DNA of 64,000 bases from a virus. Where the stretch lies: the IMG/VR virus record IMGVR_UViG_3300021365_000014, positions 2,379 to 66,378 of that record; one strand, 5' to 3'. Shown one piece after another: positions 6,311-58,895 of the stretch; positions within the stretch are counted from its first letter, which is position 1, and every line of letters begins with the position of its first letter. The notes beneath the pieces were generated by a model, which had not been told where the DNA came from, searched no databases, and saw only the letters and a list, made by a program, of their open reading frames with translations. The translations under genes and the position numbers were made by a program.

Positions 6311-6879
6311 TTAATGCTCCAGGTGGTGTTCCGCCATTTTTCTGTGACCTTGCCTTTTAATTTCTCCCATTCGCTCAACTCTATGTCATACTCGAAATTC
6401 TGTGTGGTCAGGTTCACTTGTACTTCCTTGGCTCCGTTCTTTAGGTGGAACTTCCTGGCCATGTCCGTTAACGGACTCAGTGTAACCAGTCTACTAAGGT
6501 GATTAGACTCTTTGATCATCTTGTACACTTCGTTGACCATGTGCTTGCCGCCACCTTTCTTCTTGGCCCACACTGTGTAGGCTATCGCTATGGTGCCCTG
6601 TACACCTGCCCGGTGTATGGCCTGCATGGCGGCATCCCGACTCATTGCATCCATTTCCTCCACGCTCTTTGGGATATCATGTGTGAAAGCAAAACACATC
6701 ACAGCGGCTATGTCACCTTCCTCGTCCCTTATGCCGTAGATCTTCCTGCCATGCGATTGTCTGAATTCGAGACTCAACTCCGGCCTAACTGGATCTTCCG
6801 TGACATCTATGAACGGCAGTTCTATCAATTCGAACTTGGGCGACTTTTCCAGGGCCTTATAAATTTTTTTAAGCACCAT
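6307..6879 (-). CDS. GNAT-like acyltransferase (putative)
   Basis: YTVWAKKKGGGKHMV resembles GNAT motif A; ARKFHLKNGA resembles motif B. Confidence 0.5.
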   Translation of the reverse strand: MVLKKIYKALEKSPKFELIELPFIDVTEDPVRPELSLEFRQSHGRKIYGIRDEEGDIAAVMCFAFTHDIPKSVEEMDAMSRDAAMQAIHRAGVQGTIAIAYTVWAKKKGGGKHMVNEVYKMIKESNHLSRLVTLSPLTDMARKFHLKNGAKEVQVNLTTQNFEYDIELSEWEKLKGKVTEKWRNTTWSIK

Positions 6880-6880
6880 T

Positions 6881-6985
6881 TTATTTGTATATGAACGGGT
6901 CTTTCTTCTTCAGCTCTTTGAGCCTCTTCCTATATTTGATCTCTTGTCGAATCTTGTTCCATATGTTCTTAATCCAAGTAAACAT
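6881..6985 (-). CDS. 34-aa basic microprotein ending DPFIYK (not in ORF track)
   Basis: Hand translation: MFTWIKNIWNKIRQEIKYRKRLKELKKKDPFIYK*. TAATG coupling to the upstream gene; stop lies 1 nt before the next ATG. Confidence 0.75.
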   Translation of the reverse strand: MFTWIKNIWNKIRQEIKYRKRLKELKKKDPFIYK

Positions 6986-7779
6986 TATCTGTCTCCTATT
7001 AGTTTATTAAAAGTTGGTAACATTAATTGTACAGCATCTCGGTGTGCCTCGTCAAGTGGATGTGTTGTGCCACGTGGGTAGTCATTTAGCAGTGCCCATT
7101 GATTGAAACCCATCATCCTCTCTCCAAACGAGAACCATTTGGTAAAGTCTATCTCGCTATGCAATGCCGTTATGAAGGTGTCCTGGTCCTTGTGCTGTTC
7201 GAACTCATTGTAAAAAAGACTGTTGTCAGCCAGTGTGAACATGAATGGTATTTTCTTCTTCTCCAGGATGTTCTGTAACCAAATTATGCTCTTCCAACTG
7301 AGATAAGTCTCATGGTATTGGTTGGCCGCATACTTGTATATGGCTTCCGCGAAAGGCTTTACTCCGGTATCTATCATGGATTGTTGGTGTTTCTTCCAGT
7401 GTTCCTGCTGTGCCTCTGATCCCGACAGGGCCTGATGTCTCTCCGAGTCTGCCATGCTGGTGTCCCAAGGTGATATCGAGGTCCAACGTGTGTCCTCTAA
7501 TTGTTTGTGTCTGGGCATGGCCCAATCATACCTTGAAAGGAAACTCCACATCACGACCACACACCCTATATCATTATTGTTGGCTACTGTATTGAACACT
7601 CGTCTCGCTATGGCTTGGTTCCCTAGACCTCCAAATGCTGTACATAGGTATTCGTGTCCTGATTCTATAGACAATCCATGGGCCCAAGTCTTTTTTGATG
7701 GTGTTTTTCCGTCCACGTCGTCACTCAGCTCATTGCCCAGTGTGAAACTGCATCCGCCTGCTATTAATTTCTTAGTCAT
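6985..7779 (-). CDS. SGNH/GDSL-like hydrolase or O-acyltransferase
   Basis: N-terminal AGGCSFTLG (GDS-like block I), GLGN (block II-like), C-terminal THPLDEAH (block V-like HP). Confidence 0.6.
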   Translation of the reverse strand: MTKKLIAGGCSFTLGNELSDDVDGKTPSKKTWAHGLSIESGHEYLCTAFGGLGNQAIARRVFNTVANNNDIGCVVVMWSFLSRYDWAMPRHKQLEDTRWTSISPWDTSMADSERHQALSGSEAQQEHWKKHQQSMIDTGVKPFAEAIYKYAANQYHETYLSWKSIIWLQNILEKKKIPFMFTLADNSLFYNEFEQHKDQDTFITALHSEIDFTKWFSFGERMMGFNQWALLNDYPRGTTHPLDEAHRDAVQLMLPTFNKLIGDR

Positions 7780-8950
7780 AAATTTTTAAAATGTTATTTA
7801 AAAGTGGAAACATGTCTCCAAAATTTTCTTTCCTGTACTGATCGGTTTGTAGTATTCTTCTTTTTCTTTCTGCCCGTATCTCAGGTGTATCTCTGTCAAC
7901 GGCATTCATAAATCTTATGCTGGGTTGGTAGTCTGTGAGCATGTGATACCTATCAACCACAATATCCTTTACCTGTCTTGGCAGTGTCTGTATGTTGAAC
8001 ACATCTGGATCAAAGCAAGTGTTTACATAAAAAAACTTAGGTTGAAACTGTGCCACCCATAGTGCCATCTTGGCCCAATTGAACACATTGAATATATTCA
8101 CTGTCGAACATATTTGAAAATCCATATTATGAGTTTTCATTTCTTTAAACTTAACAAGGTTTTGATTTACTTCTCGCCATTTGGCAGGATGTCTCTGGTA
8201 CTCAAAAGGTTCTCCCACATCATCAATGCTGAACGCCACTTCCACATGTTTGAAATAACTCCATAGGTCAAATATTTCCTGTGGTGGCAACTGTGTGCCG
8301 TTGGTGTTGTAATGTATGTCTATGTTCTTGGCATATCCTTTCTCAACACAGTGAATCAATATCTTGAAGTGATCCTTAATCATGAACGGTTCGCCGCCTG
8401 TGAATTCAAAGTACTCCACGTGTTTGAGGTCCTCCTGCAACTCCTCGAAGAACTGTGGGTTTCGTTTTGGCCAGCCTCCCTCTTTCAGTTGCTTTCTTGC
8501 CACGGGATTATCTCCACCCTTGGCTGTCTCATAATCTATTTCTTCCTGTGCCCACTTTGAAGAACTCCACGATCCGCAAATCCTACATTTTAAATTACAT
8601 ACGTTGCCCAACTTAAAGTCGATGAATTTCAACGTTGGCTCGCTATTAGGTGTCCAGTTTTCTAAACTGCTACGCATTTTGTAAATTGAGTTTTGCCTTT
8701 TGGATGTTTTTCCGGCATCTTCTTCTTGCCAACAACTCTGGCAACCTTTAGGACGCTCGCCATCTCTGAACTTCTTTCTTAAAAGTTCCATGTATTCTGT
8801 TTGCTGTATTGATTTAAGGCTTTGTTCGTACACCTTTACACCAGGAATACTGCCCTTGTACAAACAACAAGGAGATGCACCGCCATTTACATCAACTTCC
8901 AGATGAGTCCACGGCAATGGGCACATGTTTGAATCTATATACTTGTCCAC
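7772..8950 (-). CDS. radical SAM protein with N-terminal twitch/SPASM-like Cys module (paralog 5)
   Basis: CNLKCRIC, FTGGEPF, YNTNGT, SIDD; N-terminal CPLPW..PCC..CQSC. Confidence 0.92.
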   Translation of the reverse strand: MDKYIDSNMCPLPWTHLEVDVNGGASPCCLYKGSIPGVKVYEQSLKSIQQTEYMELLRKKFRDGERPKGCQSCWQEEDAGKTSKRQNSIYKMRSSLENWTPNSEPTLKFIDFKLGNVCNLKCRICGSWSSSKWAQEEIDYETAKGGDNPVARKQLKEGGWPKRNPQFFEELQEDLKHVEYFEFTGGEPFMIKDHFKILIHCVEKGYAKNIDIHYNTNGTQLPPQEIFDLWSYFKHVEVAFSIDDVGEPFEYQRHPAKWREVNQNLVKFKEMKTHNMDFQICSTVNIFNVFNWAKMALWVAQFQPKFFYVNTCFDPDVFNIQTLPRQVKDIVVDRYHMLTDYQPSIRFMNAVDRDTPEIRAERKRRILQTDQYRKENFGDMFPLLNNILKIYD

Positions 8951-53746: not shown

Positions 53747-55087
53747 ATGTCATCGCCCTTAAAAGTAGTTATTACCACTATACCTTTTATTGACTGGAAT
53801 ACCCCGATAAGTTCTCCAGCGTACCTCAGTGCCCTACTAAACAATCACGGCGTGGATTGTGTTGGTCTTGATCTTAACATAGAAATATACAACAAAATAA
53901 AAAATGATCCACTAAGAAATCTCTATCTGGATTTCTTTTACCATCAAAAAATAGATGCAAAAATTTACAAGTCGTTGTCAGACATGCTGTATCATTATGC
54001 GAAAAAAATATTGGAACACCGACCAACACACATAGGTTTGAGTCTTTTCACCCATGACAGCCAAGTGTTTACTGTATGGCTGTGTCACTTGTTACAAAAG
54101 ATCGCTCCCAAAATTAAAATCATAATCGGAGGACCCGGCCTGTACACACTGTCACAGAAAAAGAACGTCAGTTTTCCCGAAAGCCTCAGATCCTCAGGTT
54201 TAATAGATCACTTCATCGTTGGCGATGTCACTAGCAATCTAATCGCCTATTTCAAGGAGGGTATCAAAGAATCTAATATGAATGTAGTTGCACAACAGGA
54301 TCTAGAATTTCATAACATCGTTACCCCAAATTATGACCACTATGATTTTTTCAACTACGAACACAAACGACTTCCAATCGTTGACAGCAGAGGATGTGTG
54401 CAGAAATGTGAGTTCTGCGACGTGATCGAATTTTGGAAGAAATTCCAATACCTGTCGGCACAAAATGTGTTTTCACAAATGCAGGAACTTATAGAAAAAT
54501 ACAACATATATCGTTTCGATTTTGCCAGCAGTATTTCAAACGGTAACCTAGTCGAATTTACGAAACTTATAAGGATGATTGCACAATATAACAGAGGCAA
54601 GGTCTTCAGTAAACAAATACACTGGAATGGAAATTTTATAATCAGGAAAAAAGGAAGGCACACGGACTTACTTTTCAATGACATAAAAGAGAGTAACGGA
54701 AGATTAATATGTGGCGTTGAAAGTCTAAGTTCTACCGCAAGAATAAAATTAGGCAAAAACTTTACCAACGAAGATCTCGATGATCACTTAGTGCAGTGTA
54801 AGGCACATGGCGTACAGATCGATCTGCTGATGATCGCGGCCTACCATACCGAGACACAAGAAGACTATGCAGATGCTTTACAGTGGTTCGAAACACACAA
54901 GAATTACGCAGGGTCTGTAATCACACGTGTCCAGATGACACTGTTGGGAATATTAGACGGTACAAAACTTTCACGTGATGTAGATCTAAAACGATTCAAC
55001 GATGGTCGTGAAGCCCGTGAGGTACACGCAAACAAACTTTATGAAAAGGCAAAACAATGTGGTTTCCACGTAGACAAATTTTGGTAG
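53747..55087 (+). CDS. cobalamin-binding-domain radical SAM protein
   Basis: N-terminal PAYL..L...G...DLN and IIIGGP; SRGCVQKCEFC; GVESLS. Confidence 0.85.
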   Translation: MSSPLKVVITTIPFIDWNTPISSPAYLSALLNNHGVDCVGLDLNIEIYNKIKNDPLRNLYLDFFYHQKIDAKIYKSLSDMLYHYAKKILEHRPTHIGLSLFTHDSQVFTVWLCHLLQKIAPKIKIIIGGPGLYTLSQKKNVSFPESLRSSGLIDHFIVGDVTSNLIAYFKEGIKESNMNVVAQQDLEFHNIVTPNYDHYDFFNYEHKRLPIVDSRGCVQKCEFCDVIEFWKKFQYLSAQNVFSQMQELIEKYNIYRFDFASSISNGNLVEFTKLIRMIAQYNRGKVFSKQIHWNGNFIIRKKGRHTDLLFNDIKESNGRLICGVESLSSTARIKLGKNFTNEDLDDHLVQCKAHGVQIDLLMIAAYHTETQEDYADALQWFETHKNYAGSVITRVQMTLLGILDGTKLSRDVDLKRFNDGREAREVHANKLYEKAKQCGFHVDKFW

Positions 55088-55497
55088 AGGTTTTCCTACA
55101 GCACTCAGGAAAATTTAAAAATAGTGATCCAAAGGTGTTTTGTAAATCGGGACTAGAATCGTTGGTAAGTTCTAACGCCGAAGGCAACCTACAAAGGTTA
55201 TCGATCGAGGTCGAAGCACCTGATCAATTTCTGATAGACGCCACCAACACAGAGTCCACCGAGTGCCATATATCCAAAGTGACCATGGACGGTATTGAAA
55301 TCAATACAGAAAACATGCAAAAAGTTTTTAAAATTGCTATCAATAAAAATAATTTGCCAGTATCATTTGATAACGTACAAAATTACCAAATAAAAGTCGG
55401 CGACAGATTGTCGAAACACTCTTATATGCTGTTTGACATATGGGCAAATGATTCTATAACTTATTTGCTATCAATTGGTAATAAAATAAATTGGTAA
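55057..55497 (+). CDS. hypothetical protein
   Basis: 146-aa ORF overlapping the end of the radical SAM gene. Confidence 0.55.
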   Translation: MWFPRRQILVEVFLQHSGKFKNSDPKVFCKSGLESLVSSNAEGNLQRLSIEVEAPDQFLIDATNTESTECHISKVTMDGIEINTENMQKVFKIAINKNNLPVSFDNVQNYQIKVGDRLSKHSYMLFDIWANDSITYLLSIGNKINW

Positions 55498-55551
55498 AGC
55501 GACTGTTTTTCCGAAGAGAATGGCGCCTAGAATACGCAAATTACGTAGAAA

Positions 55552-56382
55552 TCATGGTGTAATCTTACCTAATACGTTTCCTGTAGAATATAGTTGTTGT
55601 GCTTTATCCTTTACAACATAAAAGAACATAGACGGTTCAAGATCTAATTTGTTGCAAATTTTGGTCACTGTGTCATCGTATTTTTCCCAACCATAATCAC
55701 GCGGAATATTGTCAATCATGTATGAACCACAAGCAGTGGTCAGTTCGTTGTACTTTCGTTGGGAACTGATGAGAGTGCATGAGTCCATGCTTCTTTGCCT
55801 GGACCATCTCAACCCTATTCTGTTCCACGTCAAGTTGTACTTAGACATACTCATCGCGAATGATTTAATATTAGGATGATCAAAATCAAAGTTAAAACCT
55901 TTTGCGGCTACCATCCAAGCGGCGTCGATATGGATATCGATTTTTTTCTCTTCGCATTCTTTTAAGACATCTTGCCATTCTGGTCTATCTCCGTAATAAT
56001 AATTTGGCAATGATACTATCAAAGGTACCCCAGGTTTAAGTTGTCCCGGATTTGTTGGTTGTTTTCCCATCAAACGATAGTAAGCGTAATCTCTATCAAG
56101 CACTTGTATGTTCCACTTATTTTTACTTGCAAGACTTTCTATGAAGTGTGTGCAACCCATAATGATATCAACACAAGGAAAACTGTCCCAGCCATGTAGA
56201 TCATTTAATTTGGTTGACTTGAACCATTCGCTGGCCTTGGCAACAAAGTCATCGTGTGAGATGGATTTCTGTGGATTATCGTACCATTCCTGCTTAAGAC
56301 CGATTAGATGTTTGTCTTCTAAAGGCAATAATTTTTTATCGAGGTGTTCTAATTGCAAACTACCTATACCTGACATACACAC
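55552..56382 (-). CDS. PLP-dependent transferase-fold protein (truncated aminotransferase-like)
   Basis: VSLP, IHIDAAW, SMSKYN..RIG match the class I/II PLP-binding pattern (D-x-A, S-x-S-K, R-x-G). Confidence 0.65.
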   Translation of the reverse strand: MCMSGIGSLQLEHLDKKLLPLEDKHLIGLKQEWYDNPQKSISHDDFVAKASEWFKSTKLNDLHGWDSFPCVDIIMGCTHFIESLASKNKWNIQVLDRDYAYYRLMGKQPTNPGQLKPGVPLIVSLPNYYYGDRPEWQDVLKECEEKKIDIHIDAAWMVAAKGFNFDFDHPNIKSFAMSMSKYNLTWNRIGLRWSRQRSMDSCTLISSQRKYNELTTACGSYMIDNIPRDYGWEKYDDTVTKICNKLDLEPSMFFYVVKDKAQQLYSTGNVLGKITP

Positions 56383-56914
56383 TCTTTCTTGTTCCTTTTG
56401 TAACTTCGCCTGCAGGTCCGTGCCTGCTGTCTTTGGTGTTCAACAAAGCATATCCTGTGTTCGATTCGTACTGAAAAGTTTTCAATGCATTATTATCATC
56501 ATCAAATAAGGACGTGCCTATGTTATCATCACCCAAATAAATTTGAACTGCAAGTTTTATCCTAGAATCATCGATGTGTGGCCCCATGTAATATCCTATA
56601 TTATCCAGCCATATGTCAACACTTTCAAATTTCAAATCAGTATTAAATTTTTTTTCCAATGTCTTTGTAATTGGTCTGTGCATGAAAAGTATTTTCAATT
56701 TTTTAATGATCTCTTCTTTTTCGTCCACCCTACTCCTAGAACTTTTCTCCTGTTTTTCCAAGGGCACTAAATTTAATTTTCCAAGATTTTTCAATTGGTC
56801 TAACAGTCCTTTACCAAAGAAATCTCGGTATTCTTGGTAATACTTTCCATTTATATTGACCAAAGGTGCATTTTCTATTGACAAAACCACATCTTGTGTG
56901 CTTAAATTAAACAT
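56360..56914 (-). CDS. 2OG-Fe(II) oxygenase superfamily protein
   Basis: IWLD..GYYMGPHIDD..AVQIYL..GT..N.GY...N...SRHG...R.S (HxD..H..R). Confidence 0.78.
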   Translation of the reverse strand: MFNLSTQDVVLSIENAPLVNINGKYYQEYRDFFGKGLLDQLKNLGKLNLVPLEKQEKSSRSRVDEKEEIIKKLKILFMHRPITKTLEKKFNTDLKFESVDIWLDNIGYYMGPHIDDSRIKLAVQIYLGDDNIGTSLFDDDNNALKTFQYESNTGYALLNTKDSRHGPAGEVTKGTRKSVYVRYR

Positions 56915-56957: not shown

Positions 56958-57152
56958 ATGTCAAATGAAACACATGACGCTATCATGACAGCGATTCAAA
57001 CTTACTCAGAAGAGAATGGGAAGTTTGTTGATAAGGGTGTAAAAGCCTCTGCAACAAGGGCCAGAAAGGCCTTGGCAGAATTATCGAAACTGATCAAAGC
57101 GAGAAGAAAAGAAATTCAAGAAGTTAAGAACGCGGCCAAGACAGCGGCGTAA
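56958..57152 (+). CDS. small basic histone H1-like (Hc1-type) DNA-binding protein
   Basis: KF.DKGVKASATRARKAL.EL.KL.KARRKEI; upstream AGGAAGGA RBS. Confidence 0.7.
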   Translation: MSNETHDAIMTAIQTYSEENGKFVDKGVKASATRARKALAELSKLIKARRKEIQEVKNAAKTAA

Positions 57153-57180: not shown

Positions 57181-57211
57181 GCCTCCGGCTTTACTTGTCG
57201 GAGGTTTTTTT
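57181..57211 (+). terminator. rho-independent terminator
   Basis: GCCTCCGGC-TTTACTT-GTCGGAGGT hairpin followed by a T-tract, between convergent genes. Confidence 0.85.
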
Positions 57212-57617
57212 ATGACTTGAGGATTCCCTTGCCATGCACCCTCACTCGGATGTGGCCATTATAATAATCATTAGTTTCCAGGACCTTACGTGCAAACTGT
57301 TCACGTGCTTCCACGTATGACAGTTCCGCCTTGGACTTACAGTAGAAAAGTATTTCCCTCGTGAATTTGTCTTTTCCAAGTTTGTTTACATCAATTGTGA
57401 GATCATCACTTGATCCGTAGTAGTCCTGCCAGTCTGAATCCACTTTGTACCTACGCTTGTTCTTTCTGCCTTTGAGTGGTGGTCTAGATCTTTTGAATCT
57501 CGCCAGTTTCTTACCTATGTACATCCTGCCGTTGGTTGTGTTTGTTATGAGATAAACAAATCCCACAACATCCTCCGGCATCGTGGTAATTTCATTTCCT
57601 TGGTACATCCAATGCAT
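57210..57617 (-). CDS. GIY-YIG family nuclease (small, standalone)
   Basis: GFVYLITNTTNGRMYIGKK, YYGSS, F.REIL, E, YYN; likely start MHWMYQG at 57617. Confidence 0.85.
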   Translation of the reverse strand: MHWMYQGNEITTMPEDVVGFVYLITNTTNGRMYIGKKLARFKRSRPPLKGRKNKRRYKVDSDWQDYYGSSDDLTIDVNKLGKDKFTREILFYCKSKAELSYVEAREQFARKVLETNDYYNGHIRVRVHGKGILKS

Positions 57618-57669
57618 GATGGTATTTAAAGCCAAAAAGATTGACCTAAAAAGAAAACTCATATAAACA

Positions 57670-58110
57670 AGTGCGATAGGCAAACAAAACTTCTCAAAAA
57701 TTTCCAACAGGCAAACATAGCATCGCAACCAGTGAGCAAGGAAATGCGGCTAACAAGCGACAGGTGAATCCTTAGATGCACACAGCAAAAAATGATGGGG
57801 CTCTTAGAAAAAGTTAATCCCCAGGTCTGCCAAGAACTATTATACAGGGGTTTGGTGGGCTCGCGTTGTAATGAATGAGCAAATGGGTACAGCACAACCG
57901 CCCAACTACGGTAGCGATGTATAGTGACTGCGAACTCACCACAGGGTTCAAGTCGGTTCGGCTAGAAATAGCCGAATTGTGACTGCTCATCTACCACAGG
58001 GCACGCAATATGCGTACACCGTTTATTTTTCACTTTGCGTAAGCGTAAATTAAGAAACGAAACGAGCGTAAGCGAAGTTTCAGATGGCGTAAGCCGTCTC
58101 TGACGATCCA
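57670..58110 (+). ncRNA. candidate structured non-coding RNA or cis element (alternatively a replication origin)
   Basis: ~500 nt gap without a credible ORF, containing GNRA-capped hairpins, a duplicated GTGACTGC-N6-ACCACAGGG module and 3x GCGTAAGC. Boundaries are approximate. Confidence 0.5.
57924..58001 (+). repeat. direct repeat GTGACTGC-N6-ACCACAGGG x2 (55-nt period) flanking a perfect hairpin
   Basis: Copies at 57924-57946 and 57979-58001; hairpin TTCGGCTA-GAAA-TAGCCGAA at 57957-57976. Confidence 0.85.
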
Positions 58111-58124
58111 TTAAGTACTGCACA

Positions 58125-58895
58125 ATGGAACTAATCTTCGATCACACACTGGGCAAACAGGAACACCAGGACATCGTGATATGCCGACCCATGGCCATAG
58201 TGGACATCGACGAGGAACACGAGGCGTTGGACCATGGATGGTTGGCGCTGGACCACCCGGTCATGAACCGTGAGGTTTTCTACCAATCACGTAGCACACG
58301 CATAAACCTGGACCTGTACAAGCCACGATACAAACGACACGAGTACCAGGGCGACGAGATCGGCGTGAAAATAATAGACGCATCCGAGATGGTGAAACTG
58401 TTGGGACTGCCGCACATCTACAAGCAATACATGGAGAGAAAAAAATTTACGCAGGACTACGACCCATTCGCACACTACCACCCACGTGACCAGTTCATGA
58501 TATTCTACACAGGATCCGCTGACAACATCATCGGGTTCACCAAACAGAAGCGTTACCGTTGGGAGGCGGAGCACTACAGCACCATAGACAGTTATGACTC
58601 CAAGGACCTGCACGGCCTGGAGAGCGTGTTGCACGCCAACACGGTGCCCATATCGGAAGTGACGCTGGACATGGAGATAGAGTGGGCCGCCAACAACTAC
58701 GTCAGTTACTTCTACATGGGATCGGGATATGAGACCTCATCGGAGTACAAGGCCAACTACCGGGGATTCGAGTGGTGGACGGGCACGGAGTGGAGCCGCA
58801 ACAAGAAGCAGTACCGTAGGTTGTGTAAGAGGGACTCTAGGATCGAGTCTTTGCGGGATCTCGGAAACCTTTCACTGATTCCAGATAAGTCTTAG
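58125..58895 (+). CDS. arginyl/leucyl-tRNA--protein transferase-like protein (ATE1/Bpt-like)
   Basis: ALDHGW..Y.SRSTRINL N-terminal pattern; C-terminal YFYMGSGY..SS.YKANY.GFEWW resembles the ATE_C YYLGY...M.YK..Y.P.E motif. Confidence 0.6.
   Translation: MELIFDHTLGKQEHQDIVICRPMAIVDIDEEHEALDHGWLALDHPVMNREVFYQSRSTRINLDLYKPRYKRHEYQGDEIGVKIIDASEMVKLLGLPHIYKQYMERKKFTQDYDPFAHYHPRDQFMIFYTGSADNIIGFTKQKRYRWEAEHYSTIDSYDSKDLHGLESVLHANTVPISEVTLDMEIEWAANNYVSYFYMGSGYETSSEYKANYRGFEWWTGTEWSRNKKQYRRLCKRDSRIESLRDLGNLSLIPDKS

Follow-up and report, generated by a model that had tools for sequence, protein, structure and literature searches.

The 64,000-nt stretch of viral DNA analysed here (the window; positions 2,379 to 66,378 of IMG/VR record IMGVR_UViG_3300021365_000014) makes up most of a 66-kb record. 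CheckV puts the completeness of the record at 19%, which implies a full genome of roughly 350 kb. The baseplate hub protein of the record is ~33% identical to the hubs of PA5oct-like and other jumbo phages, and the window is a fragment of a marine jumbo phage. Its largest gene-free gap, as already pointed out in a first-pass annotation made from the sequence alone, lies at 57621–58124, between a gene for a 136-aa GIY-YIG protein on the left (minus strand) and a 256-aa open reading frame (ORF), p256, on the right (plus strand). By a crude measure that counts ATG-initiated ORFs of at least 70 aa, the gap spans 462 nt and the next largest 295 nt. We show below that the gap is the gene of a ~430-nt plus-strand non-coding RNA (ncRNA) with a promoter-like site of its own. 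The data support well that this RNA represents a new, large, pseudoknotted ncRNA family of uncultured marine jumbo phages, outside the catalogued families.

The gap as a gene for a structured RNA

Relatives were gathered by two routes. The p256 protein, used as bait, retrieved 67 IMG/VR loci, and a scan of IMG/VR with the 19-mer at 57885–57903 yielded at least 119 viral contigs; pooling the loci gave 96 distinct full-length sequences, 44–96% identical to the window. Among the 67 p256-bearing loci, blastn finds the element at 78–96% identity in more than 50 contigs. In L051–L053 it retains 78–81% nucleotide identity, although protein identity has dropped to 48–57% for GIY-YIG and p256. The contigs that carry the 19-nt core include members down to 44–50% identity, and the 19-mer itself is invariant in every member found.

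Folding of the single sequence gives a modest result (plus strand, z −2.0, with 3 of 100 shuffles as good; minus strand, z −0.5). As this exceeds chance by a modest margin, the case rests on the relatives, that is, on conservation and covariation, both of which were found. An unbiased RNAalifold consensus of 34 sequences contains 71 pairs, 22 of them with double (compensatory) changes, and mutual information over the 96 sequences recovers the same helices together with a long-range pairing, 57839–46/57918–25. The curated fold was written by hand and comprises 15 helix segments; all covariation counts refer to alignment A2, which holds 50 non-redundant sequences. Standard pairs occupy 96.8% of its cells (81.9% in shuffles), 49 of 75 pairs have changed on both sides (shuffle mean 36.6) and compensatory cells number 567 (144 ± 13 in shuffles); none of 500 shuffles attained the observed values. 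When the partner strand was slid by 1–3 columns as a control, only 31–39% of cells paired. Read on the minus strand, the same fold pairs in 89.2% of cells, and G-U cells (317) far exceed A-C cells (36), so the structure belongs to the plus strand. Furthermore, conservation reaches 96% or more at 64 unpaired positions. The early proposal of a novel phage ncRNA under selection at the RNA level on this strand is thus borne out. A scan against Rfam 15 (4227 models) returned no match at gathering threshold anywhere in the window; for 57400–58300, relaxing the limit to E 10 brought up only three matches, all at chance level and far under threshold, and at E up to 0.1 the loci of five divergent members gave none.

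Three domains make up the RNA: one of three helices on the 5′ side, a central one and one of two hairpins on the 3′ side (Table 1). In the 5′ domain, P1 and P2 pair in 95.2% and 95.0% of cells, with three compensatory pairs each; P3 is the weak point, pairing in 69% of cells in a register that is uncertain and differs between subfamilies. P4 pairs in 98.8% of cells, and mutual information backs 57798–57821 and 57805–57816. P5, the long hairpin of the central domain, engages through its loop in an 8-bp pseudoknot, PK1, around the invariant core. P5 shows compensatory changes in 11 of 13 pairs and is paired in 97.5% of cells; the corresponding values for PK1 are 6 of 8 pairs and 98.2%, and its pairing is maintained in distant subfamilies with wholly different letters. 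P9, paired in 98.9% of cells with five compensatory pairs, contains the perfect 8-bp GAAA hairpin recognized earlier at 57957–57976. The segment at 58003–58058 is missing in L051, L052, L102, L109, L165 and L169 and terminator-like in other members. The 3′ domain is retained in distant members: all five pairs of P11 are compensatory, and P12, which is the AGATGGC-GTAA-GCCGTCT hairpin of the first-pass annotation (58082–58099), pairs in 97.7% of cells.

Table 1. Features in and around the gap (window coordinates; pseudoknot and helix names as in the text)
Feature	Position	Strand	Details
SegE-type GIY-YIG nuclease gene	57210..57620	−	136 aa, catalytic domain only; Pfam PF19835
Promoter-like region	57641..57668	+	−35 TTGACC 57641–46; 16-nt spacer; −10-like TATAAA 57663–68; A/T-rich stretch before
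Proposed ncRNA gene	about 57675–58103, ~430 nt	+	both ends approximate; from conservation and covariation
A-rich 5′ leader	57678..57717	+	AGGCAAACA at 57678 and 57709; AGGCA 2–3 times in relatives
5′ domain	57720..57779	+	P1 57720–24/57775–79; P2 57738–41/57770–73; P3 57749–51/57756–58
P4 and P4a	57796..57823	+	P4 57796–800/57819–23 around P4a 57804–06/57815–17
P5 long hairpin	57824..57861	+	57824–34/57851–61, 57837–38/57847–48; apical loop 57839–46
Pseudoknot PK1	57839..57925	+	P5 loop 57839–46 with 57918–25, ~80 nt apart
Conserved core	57862..57917	+	junction 57862–78; P6 57879–80/57914–15 with flanking tandem G-A
Conserved core, continued	57884..57912	+	P7 57884–88/57900–04, invariant 11-nt loop; P8 57905–06/57911–12
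Module M1	57924..57949	+	GTGACTGC; probable hairpin 57932–35/57946–49; loop holds 6-mer 57938–43 (A-C-CAC-A)
P9 hairpin	57954..57979	+	11 bp, GAAA loop, between M1 and M2
Module M2	57979..58003	+	GTGACTGC; same variable 6-mer at 57993–98
Variable segment	58003..58058	+	hairpin P10 (about 58003–15) and U/A-rich linker
3′ domain, P11	58059–63/58077–81	+	G-A/G-A internal loop; cap 58066–67/58072–73
3′ domain, P12	58082–88/58093–99	+	GTAA loop
p256	58125..58895	+	256 aa; predicted fold of aminoacyl-tRNA-dependent transferases (ATE1/FemX/MprF type)

Several sequence motifs had been singled out before relatives were available. The hexamer TTGACC and both copies of AGGCAAACA are present, and the promoter-like −35 and −10 are conserved in relatives; the −35 and the A/T-rich stretch upstream of it are kept in most of the main family, with the spacer occurring in two versions. 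No pairing was detected in the A-rich leader, and a T-rich tail follows P12 in 20 of 50 sequences, the window itself having none. All three copies of GCGTAAGC exist (58037, 58066 and 58087), the last two being the apical parts of two conserved hairpins, but the first lies inside the variable, dispensable segment. Likewise, the CCA at 58108–58110 is present but not kept in relatives. Less survives of a proposed pairing between ATGAGCA and TGCTCAT: TGCTCAT lies at 57984 as described and ATGAGCA at 57875–57881, one base to the left of the position first given, but ATGAGCA varies without compensation, and 57879–80 pair with 57914–15 instead. Two further pairings, namely, GTGAGCA of J1/2 with M2 (an RNAalifold prediction) and CATCT of M2 with the 5′ strand of P12 as an antiterminator, were dropped for want of covariation. 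Position 57874 in the junction covaries with the P9 pair 57958–57975, which could reflect a base triple or the shared ancestry of one clade.

The RNA is a marine one, judging from its sources: the element is present in 20 sequencing runs of 14 studies, and every one of these runs is a marine or seawater metagenome. Genes have been inserted between it and the GIY-YIG gene (L007, L015, L022, L032, L034, L038) and between it and p256 (L002, L009, L015, L046), so the element is a separable unit. Among 50,697 GenBank phage records, blastn with the element or with 6 kb around it and tblastn with p256 gave no match. A covariance model of 57822–58002, R1, finds no second copy in the window. Applied to two cultured relatives picked by their baseplate hub, R1 has no match in Vibrio phage 2.275.O and one weak match (E 0.07) in an unrelated place of PA5oct. 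PA5oct (L196) also has a 1.3-kb region with only tiny annotated ORFs (6526–7870), which lies downstream of the baseplate hub gene, two genes on, and in which neither R1 nor Rfam matches. At least 10 IMG/VR contigs start inside the element, at locus position 1 (L005, L006, L012, L013, L014, L019, L025, L042, L045, L049), which suggests that metagenome assemblies break at a sequence common to co-occurring strains with differing flanks.

The 19-mer was found in seven places in 185,579 prokaryote genomes. Three of them (L189–L191) were rejected as chance matches in high-GC coding DNA. The other four (L188, L192–L194) are true members, full-length RNA copies on short contigs (2–10 kb) of metagenome-assembled genomes (MAGs). 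These MAGs carry the labels Neomarinimicrobiota, Pacearchaeota, Pseudobdellovibrionaceae and Betaproteobacteria; most likely, these are mis-binned phage contigs and no evidence of a host. The 19-nt core can also serve as an annotation marker, and it exposes phage contigs placed in unrelated MAGs.

Twin modules and neighbouring genes

The duplication reported in the first-pass annotation, GTGACTGC-N6-ACCACAGGG, is indeed present at 57924 and 57979, on either side of P9. Each module has a conserved head, which in the window reads GTGACTGC; a short segment follows that is constant but differs between the two copies, and then a variable 6-mer with the pattern R-N-[NNN]-A. M1 probably forms a hairpin of 4–5 bp with the 6-mer in its loop, a tentative assignment from partial compensation read by eye, and M2 may form a similar one, less clearly and also by eye. 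In all 87 aligned members, M1 repeats the 6-mer of M2. A tree from which the module columns were excluded requires at least 10 switches of the 6-mer and, counting the triplet only, at least six. Among all distinct parsed segments, the 6-mer is identical in both modules in 100 of 105, with L089 additionally left unparsed. The real exception is L184, in which one base differs; L076, L081, L086, L114 and L089 are distant members mis-parsed by the pattern, and in L081, L086, L114 and L089 a motif common to both modules is visible by eye. The triplets are CAC, TAC, ATG and GTG, joined in distant members by GCA/ACA (L114/L086) and GAA (L089), and the next letter is always A. The closely related pair L114/L086 shows a further joint switch. 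We know of no counterpart to such twin co-varying specificity loops. A CRISPR-like (clustered regularly interspaced short palindromic repeats) mini-array or repeat mimic was rejected, since its ‘spacer’ would be the conserved, covarying P9 and the repeats constantly differ at 6 of 23 positions. The window contains eight copies of the motif ACCACAGG, where 3.2 would be expected; the other six are all located on the minus strand within genes, and the excess was dismissed as uninformative.

The labels first given to the two neighbours hold. The GIY-YIG protein matches Pfam SegE_GIY-YIG over residues 4–124 of 136 (125.5 bits, cut-off 25; E 1.9e-36), and the same family is matched above cut-off in L106 and L114. 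Of 108 distinct loci, 101 have a homologue no more than 3.5 kb upstream of the RNA, on the minus strand in 94 and on the plus strand in 7; the most divergent subfamilies keep the gene with its orientation flipped to plus (L106, L114). The best PHROG of this protein, phrog_447 (E 5e-41), is labelled ‘NAD synthetase’, which clashes with Pfam and with four other PHROGs (homing endonuclease). Free-standing GIY-YIG homing endonuclease genes of the Seg type are known from T4-like phages, some of them among structural RNA genes. Here, too, a SegE-family gene adjoins a highly conserved RNA gene, and most simply it is a Seg-like homing endonuclease parked there. Unlike the sporadic Seg genes, however, it is present in 94% of loci, encodes only 136 aa and has no extra DNA-binding domain, and this universal-like presence and minimal size may leave room for a functional pairing with the RNA.

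The protein p256 has no PHROG match and no Pfam family even at E 10. Clusters of its look-alikes in the ESM Atlas carry ATE_C, and a 143-aa relative in L106 scores 24.1 bits against ATE_C, just below the cut-off of 25. We modeled the structure of p256 with AlphaFold (mean predicted local distance difference test, pLDDT, 78.1; predicted template modelling score, pTM, 0.80). In Foldseek searches, the model best matches human ATE1 (E 2e-6, query-normalised TM-score 0.49) and yeast ATE1 (0.48–0.51), followed by MprF/aaPGS and FemX at E 2e-5 to 1e-4. The predicted fold thus hints that p256 is an aminoacyl-tRNA-dependent transferase-like protein; ATE1, MprF/aaPGS and FemX all transfer an amino acid from aminoacyl-tRNA. 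PDB sequence searches with both neighbours gave no useful match. In 51 of 70 loci, the 3.5 kb that follow the RNA include an ATE-like gene. One p256 homologue (L050:2664–3401) has an in-frame stop.

Possible function of the RNA

Overall, we read the locus as an ncRNA gene whose product would be a scaffold with twin loops for binding a partner, a reading that we hold to be slightly more probable than improbable. The folded RNA would act mainly in trans. Its two modules, which flank the GAAA hairpin, would be equivalent and would both present an identical specificity sequence, the variable triplet plus the invariant A. Since this sequence is the same in both modules, the RNA would bind two copies of one partner that varies between lineages. 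As partner we would prefer the anticodon loop of a particular tRNA, recognized after the manner of a specifier codon. A tRNA is an attractive candidate in view of the triplet followed by A and of the adjacent gene for a tRNA-dependent transferase-like protein, to which such binding would link the RNA. We nonetheless rate it as an unlikely one, and a dimeric RNA-binding protein is about equally likely. In T-box leaders, a specifier triplet followed by a conserved purine stands in a loop, G-A motifs lie by the helices and a terminal hairpin precedes an aminoacyl-tRNA-related gene. The present RNA also has a triplet plus A, G-A motifs, a last hairpin and an aminoacyl-tRNA-transferase-like neighbour. 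However, its triplet loop is present in two identical copies where a T-box has a single one, neither a T-box sequence nor an antiterminator could be found in it, many members have no downstream gene and the host is a phage rather than a Gram-positive bacterium. By analogy, it might be a double-headed counterpart of the T-box working in trans, the two loops capturing two copies of one tRNA species by their anticodon loops and thereby selecting, holding or reporting it for the neighbouring transferase, which is rather unlikely; if true, the triplet would have been re-tuned at least 10 times as lineages changed their target tRNA.

A number of observations weigh against the scaffold reading or parts of it. 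The invariance of the core is partly circular, because the 19-mer was the search key for all distant members. In 19 of 70 loci, the 3.5 kb downstream of the RNA contain no ATE-like gene, three of these loci (L071, L134 and L160) having one upstream instead, and with p256 relatives of 27–32% identity (L056–L067) R1 detects no RNA. ARAGORN finds no tRNA or transfer-messenger RNA (tmRNA) in the window or in 60 related loci, and calling the triplet a codon is cheap, as any three letters qualify. By mutual information, no segment within the RNA is complementary to the modules, and the flanks contain 96 reverse complements of the 7-mer, where about 86 would be expected. With no complement in the RNA or the nearby genome, the modules are most simply read as two equivalent binding sites for an outside partner that is not the same in all lineages. 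Yet the CAC/TAC and ATG/GTG flips would be wobble-neutral towards a fixed partner; their strict concert therefore points to a partner that is changing as well, which is awkward for host tRNAs. Furthermore, swaps of the entire M1-P9-M2 block by recombination could inflate the count of independent switches.

The evidence for transcription carries similar reservations. A consensus promoter scan did not call the site at 57641, presumably because its second hexamer ends in A and not in T. Contigs of four RNA libraries cover the element, although these carry no strand or end information and may include DNA. They begin at 57650 in run X15 and at 57686 in X18, with zero cover of the GIY-YIG gene in both, but in X16 the entire region is covered; the uncovered parts of the region in X15, X18 and X19 do not show silence. 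Contigs of X15 also reach into p256 (57858–58158, then 58149–58448), so the RNA may double as a 5′ leader in the lineage of the window. Together, these data are a weak hint that the element is expressed, with read-through.

This overlap with p256 bears on an alternative in which the element is a cis-acting leader of p256 that senses a signal, perhaps a tRNA, and decides at P12 between termination and read-through in the manner of a T-box. The ATE-like gene directly follows on the plus strand in 46 of the 70 loci with enough downstream sequence, the T-rich tail after P12 and the X15 contigs running into p256 would suit such a leader, and a gene that consumes aminoacyl-tRNA would be a plausible target of tRNA sensing. 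The idea fits the lineage of the window, but not the members without a downstream gene. Moreover, the genes 3′ of the RNA lie on the opposite strand in L114, L089, L093, L100, L069, L072 and L183, the insertions named above separate the RNA from p256 in four loci, and in L071 and L134 the upstream ATE-like gene is on the other strand. No covarying alternative pairing competes with P12, and the Rfam T-box model (RF00230) has no match in the window, in 57400–58300 or in the five divergent loci. We therefore regard a cis-acting role as unlikely. Alternatively, the RNA could be a partner of the GIY-YIG nuclease, either targeting or restraining it, or the nuclease could cut at the two identical module sequences. 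The nuclease gene accompanies the RNA even in the most distant subfamilies, and the protein consists of the GIY-YIG fold with no further domain. Yet the entire neighbourhood is syntenic (a baseplate hub gene lies downstream in every listed locus that lacks the ATE-like gene), so adjacency by itself is weak evidence; the gene is missing in 7 of 108 loci and split from the RNA by inserted genes in at least 18, and a variable stretch of 6 nt is too short for a guide. GIY-YIG enzymes are DNA nucleases, and we know of none that is RNA-guided. Such a partnership is accordingly quite improbable.

Two further explanations dispense with an RNA function. The modules form two 23-bp direct repeats, 55 bp apart, that might act at the DNA level as iterons, operators or a homing site. 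Repeated DNA sites that co-evolve with a binding protein typically change together, and the modules, which do change in concert, show little RNA pairing themselves. But the surrounding 350 nt evolve by compensatory changes, including the 317 G-U cells that are valid only on plus-strand RNA, the pseudoknot covaries across 80 nt and GC skew shows no turn at the element. The replication origin considered in the first-pass annotation is likewise not supported. A purely DNA-level element thus has a very small probability, and the modules could serve as a DNA site in addition. Finally, the minus-strand frame 57662–58123 is open over 154 codons save for one TAG, as though a protein gene were hidden by reassignment of a stop codon. 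Coding there is ruled out by the lengths of indels relative to the window (modulo 3: 418 with remainder 1, 80 with remainder 2 and 141 with remainder 0) and by column variability without a three-base period (0.209, 0.194, 0.179). The flanking genes are moreover normal under table 11, and substitutions track RNA pairing, leaving a hidden gene a vanishing likelihood.

RNase P RNA, group I and II introns, 6S, signal recognition particle and other ubiquitous RNAs were rejected, as none matches in Rfam and no interrupted gene flanks the element. Likenesses to conserved RNase P regions, box C/D motifs and CsrA sites were discarded too, the segments concerned pairing locally with covariation or varying across subfamilies. 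A full-text literature search found no account of the RNA, nor the 19-mer as text. It is rare for a large, intricately folded RNA to have dozens of unpaired nucleotides that never vary, and the RNAs of this kind with a known role (ribosomal RNA, RNase P, self-splicing introns, tmRNA) perform sophisticated biochemistry. Closest in kind are GOLLD and ROOL, large orphan ncRNAs with Rfam families of their own that occur beside phage genes and are the subject of a cryo-EM paper (PMC12286853). They resemble the present RNA in their length of several hundred nucleotides, many covarying helices and pseudoknotting, as well as in being phage-borne, with many invariant unpaired nucleotides. Unlike them, this RNA matches neither Rfam model and sits by the baseplate hub region in marine jumbo phages. 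A catalogue of structured-RNA candidates from IMG/VR intergenic regions draws on the same collection and the same type of evidence, covariation; its motifs are 29–151 nt long (PMC10690425), so at most fragments of the ~430-nt RNA would be listed there. For the present family, the joint switching of the twin loops offers an experimental handle on the partner, and the transferase-like neighbour hints at unexplored dealings of giant phages with host tRNA.

Upstream of the GIY-YIG gene, the window holds an accessory block (53747–56914) that encodes a B12-binding radical S-adenosylmethionine protein, a 276-aa protein weakly resembling pyridoxal phosphate enzymes and two unknown proteins, and whose content varies from locus to locus. 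It is followed by a gene for a 64-aa histone H1-like Hc1 protein (56958–57152, plus strand; Pfam E 6e-12), which is 79–100% identical across loci and has the top summed contig depth in RNA run X15.

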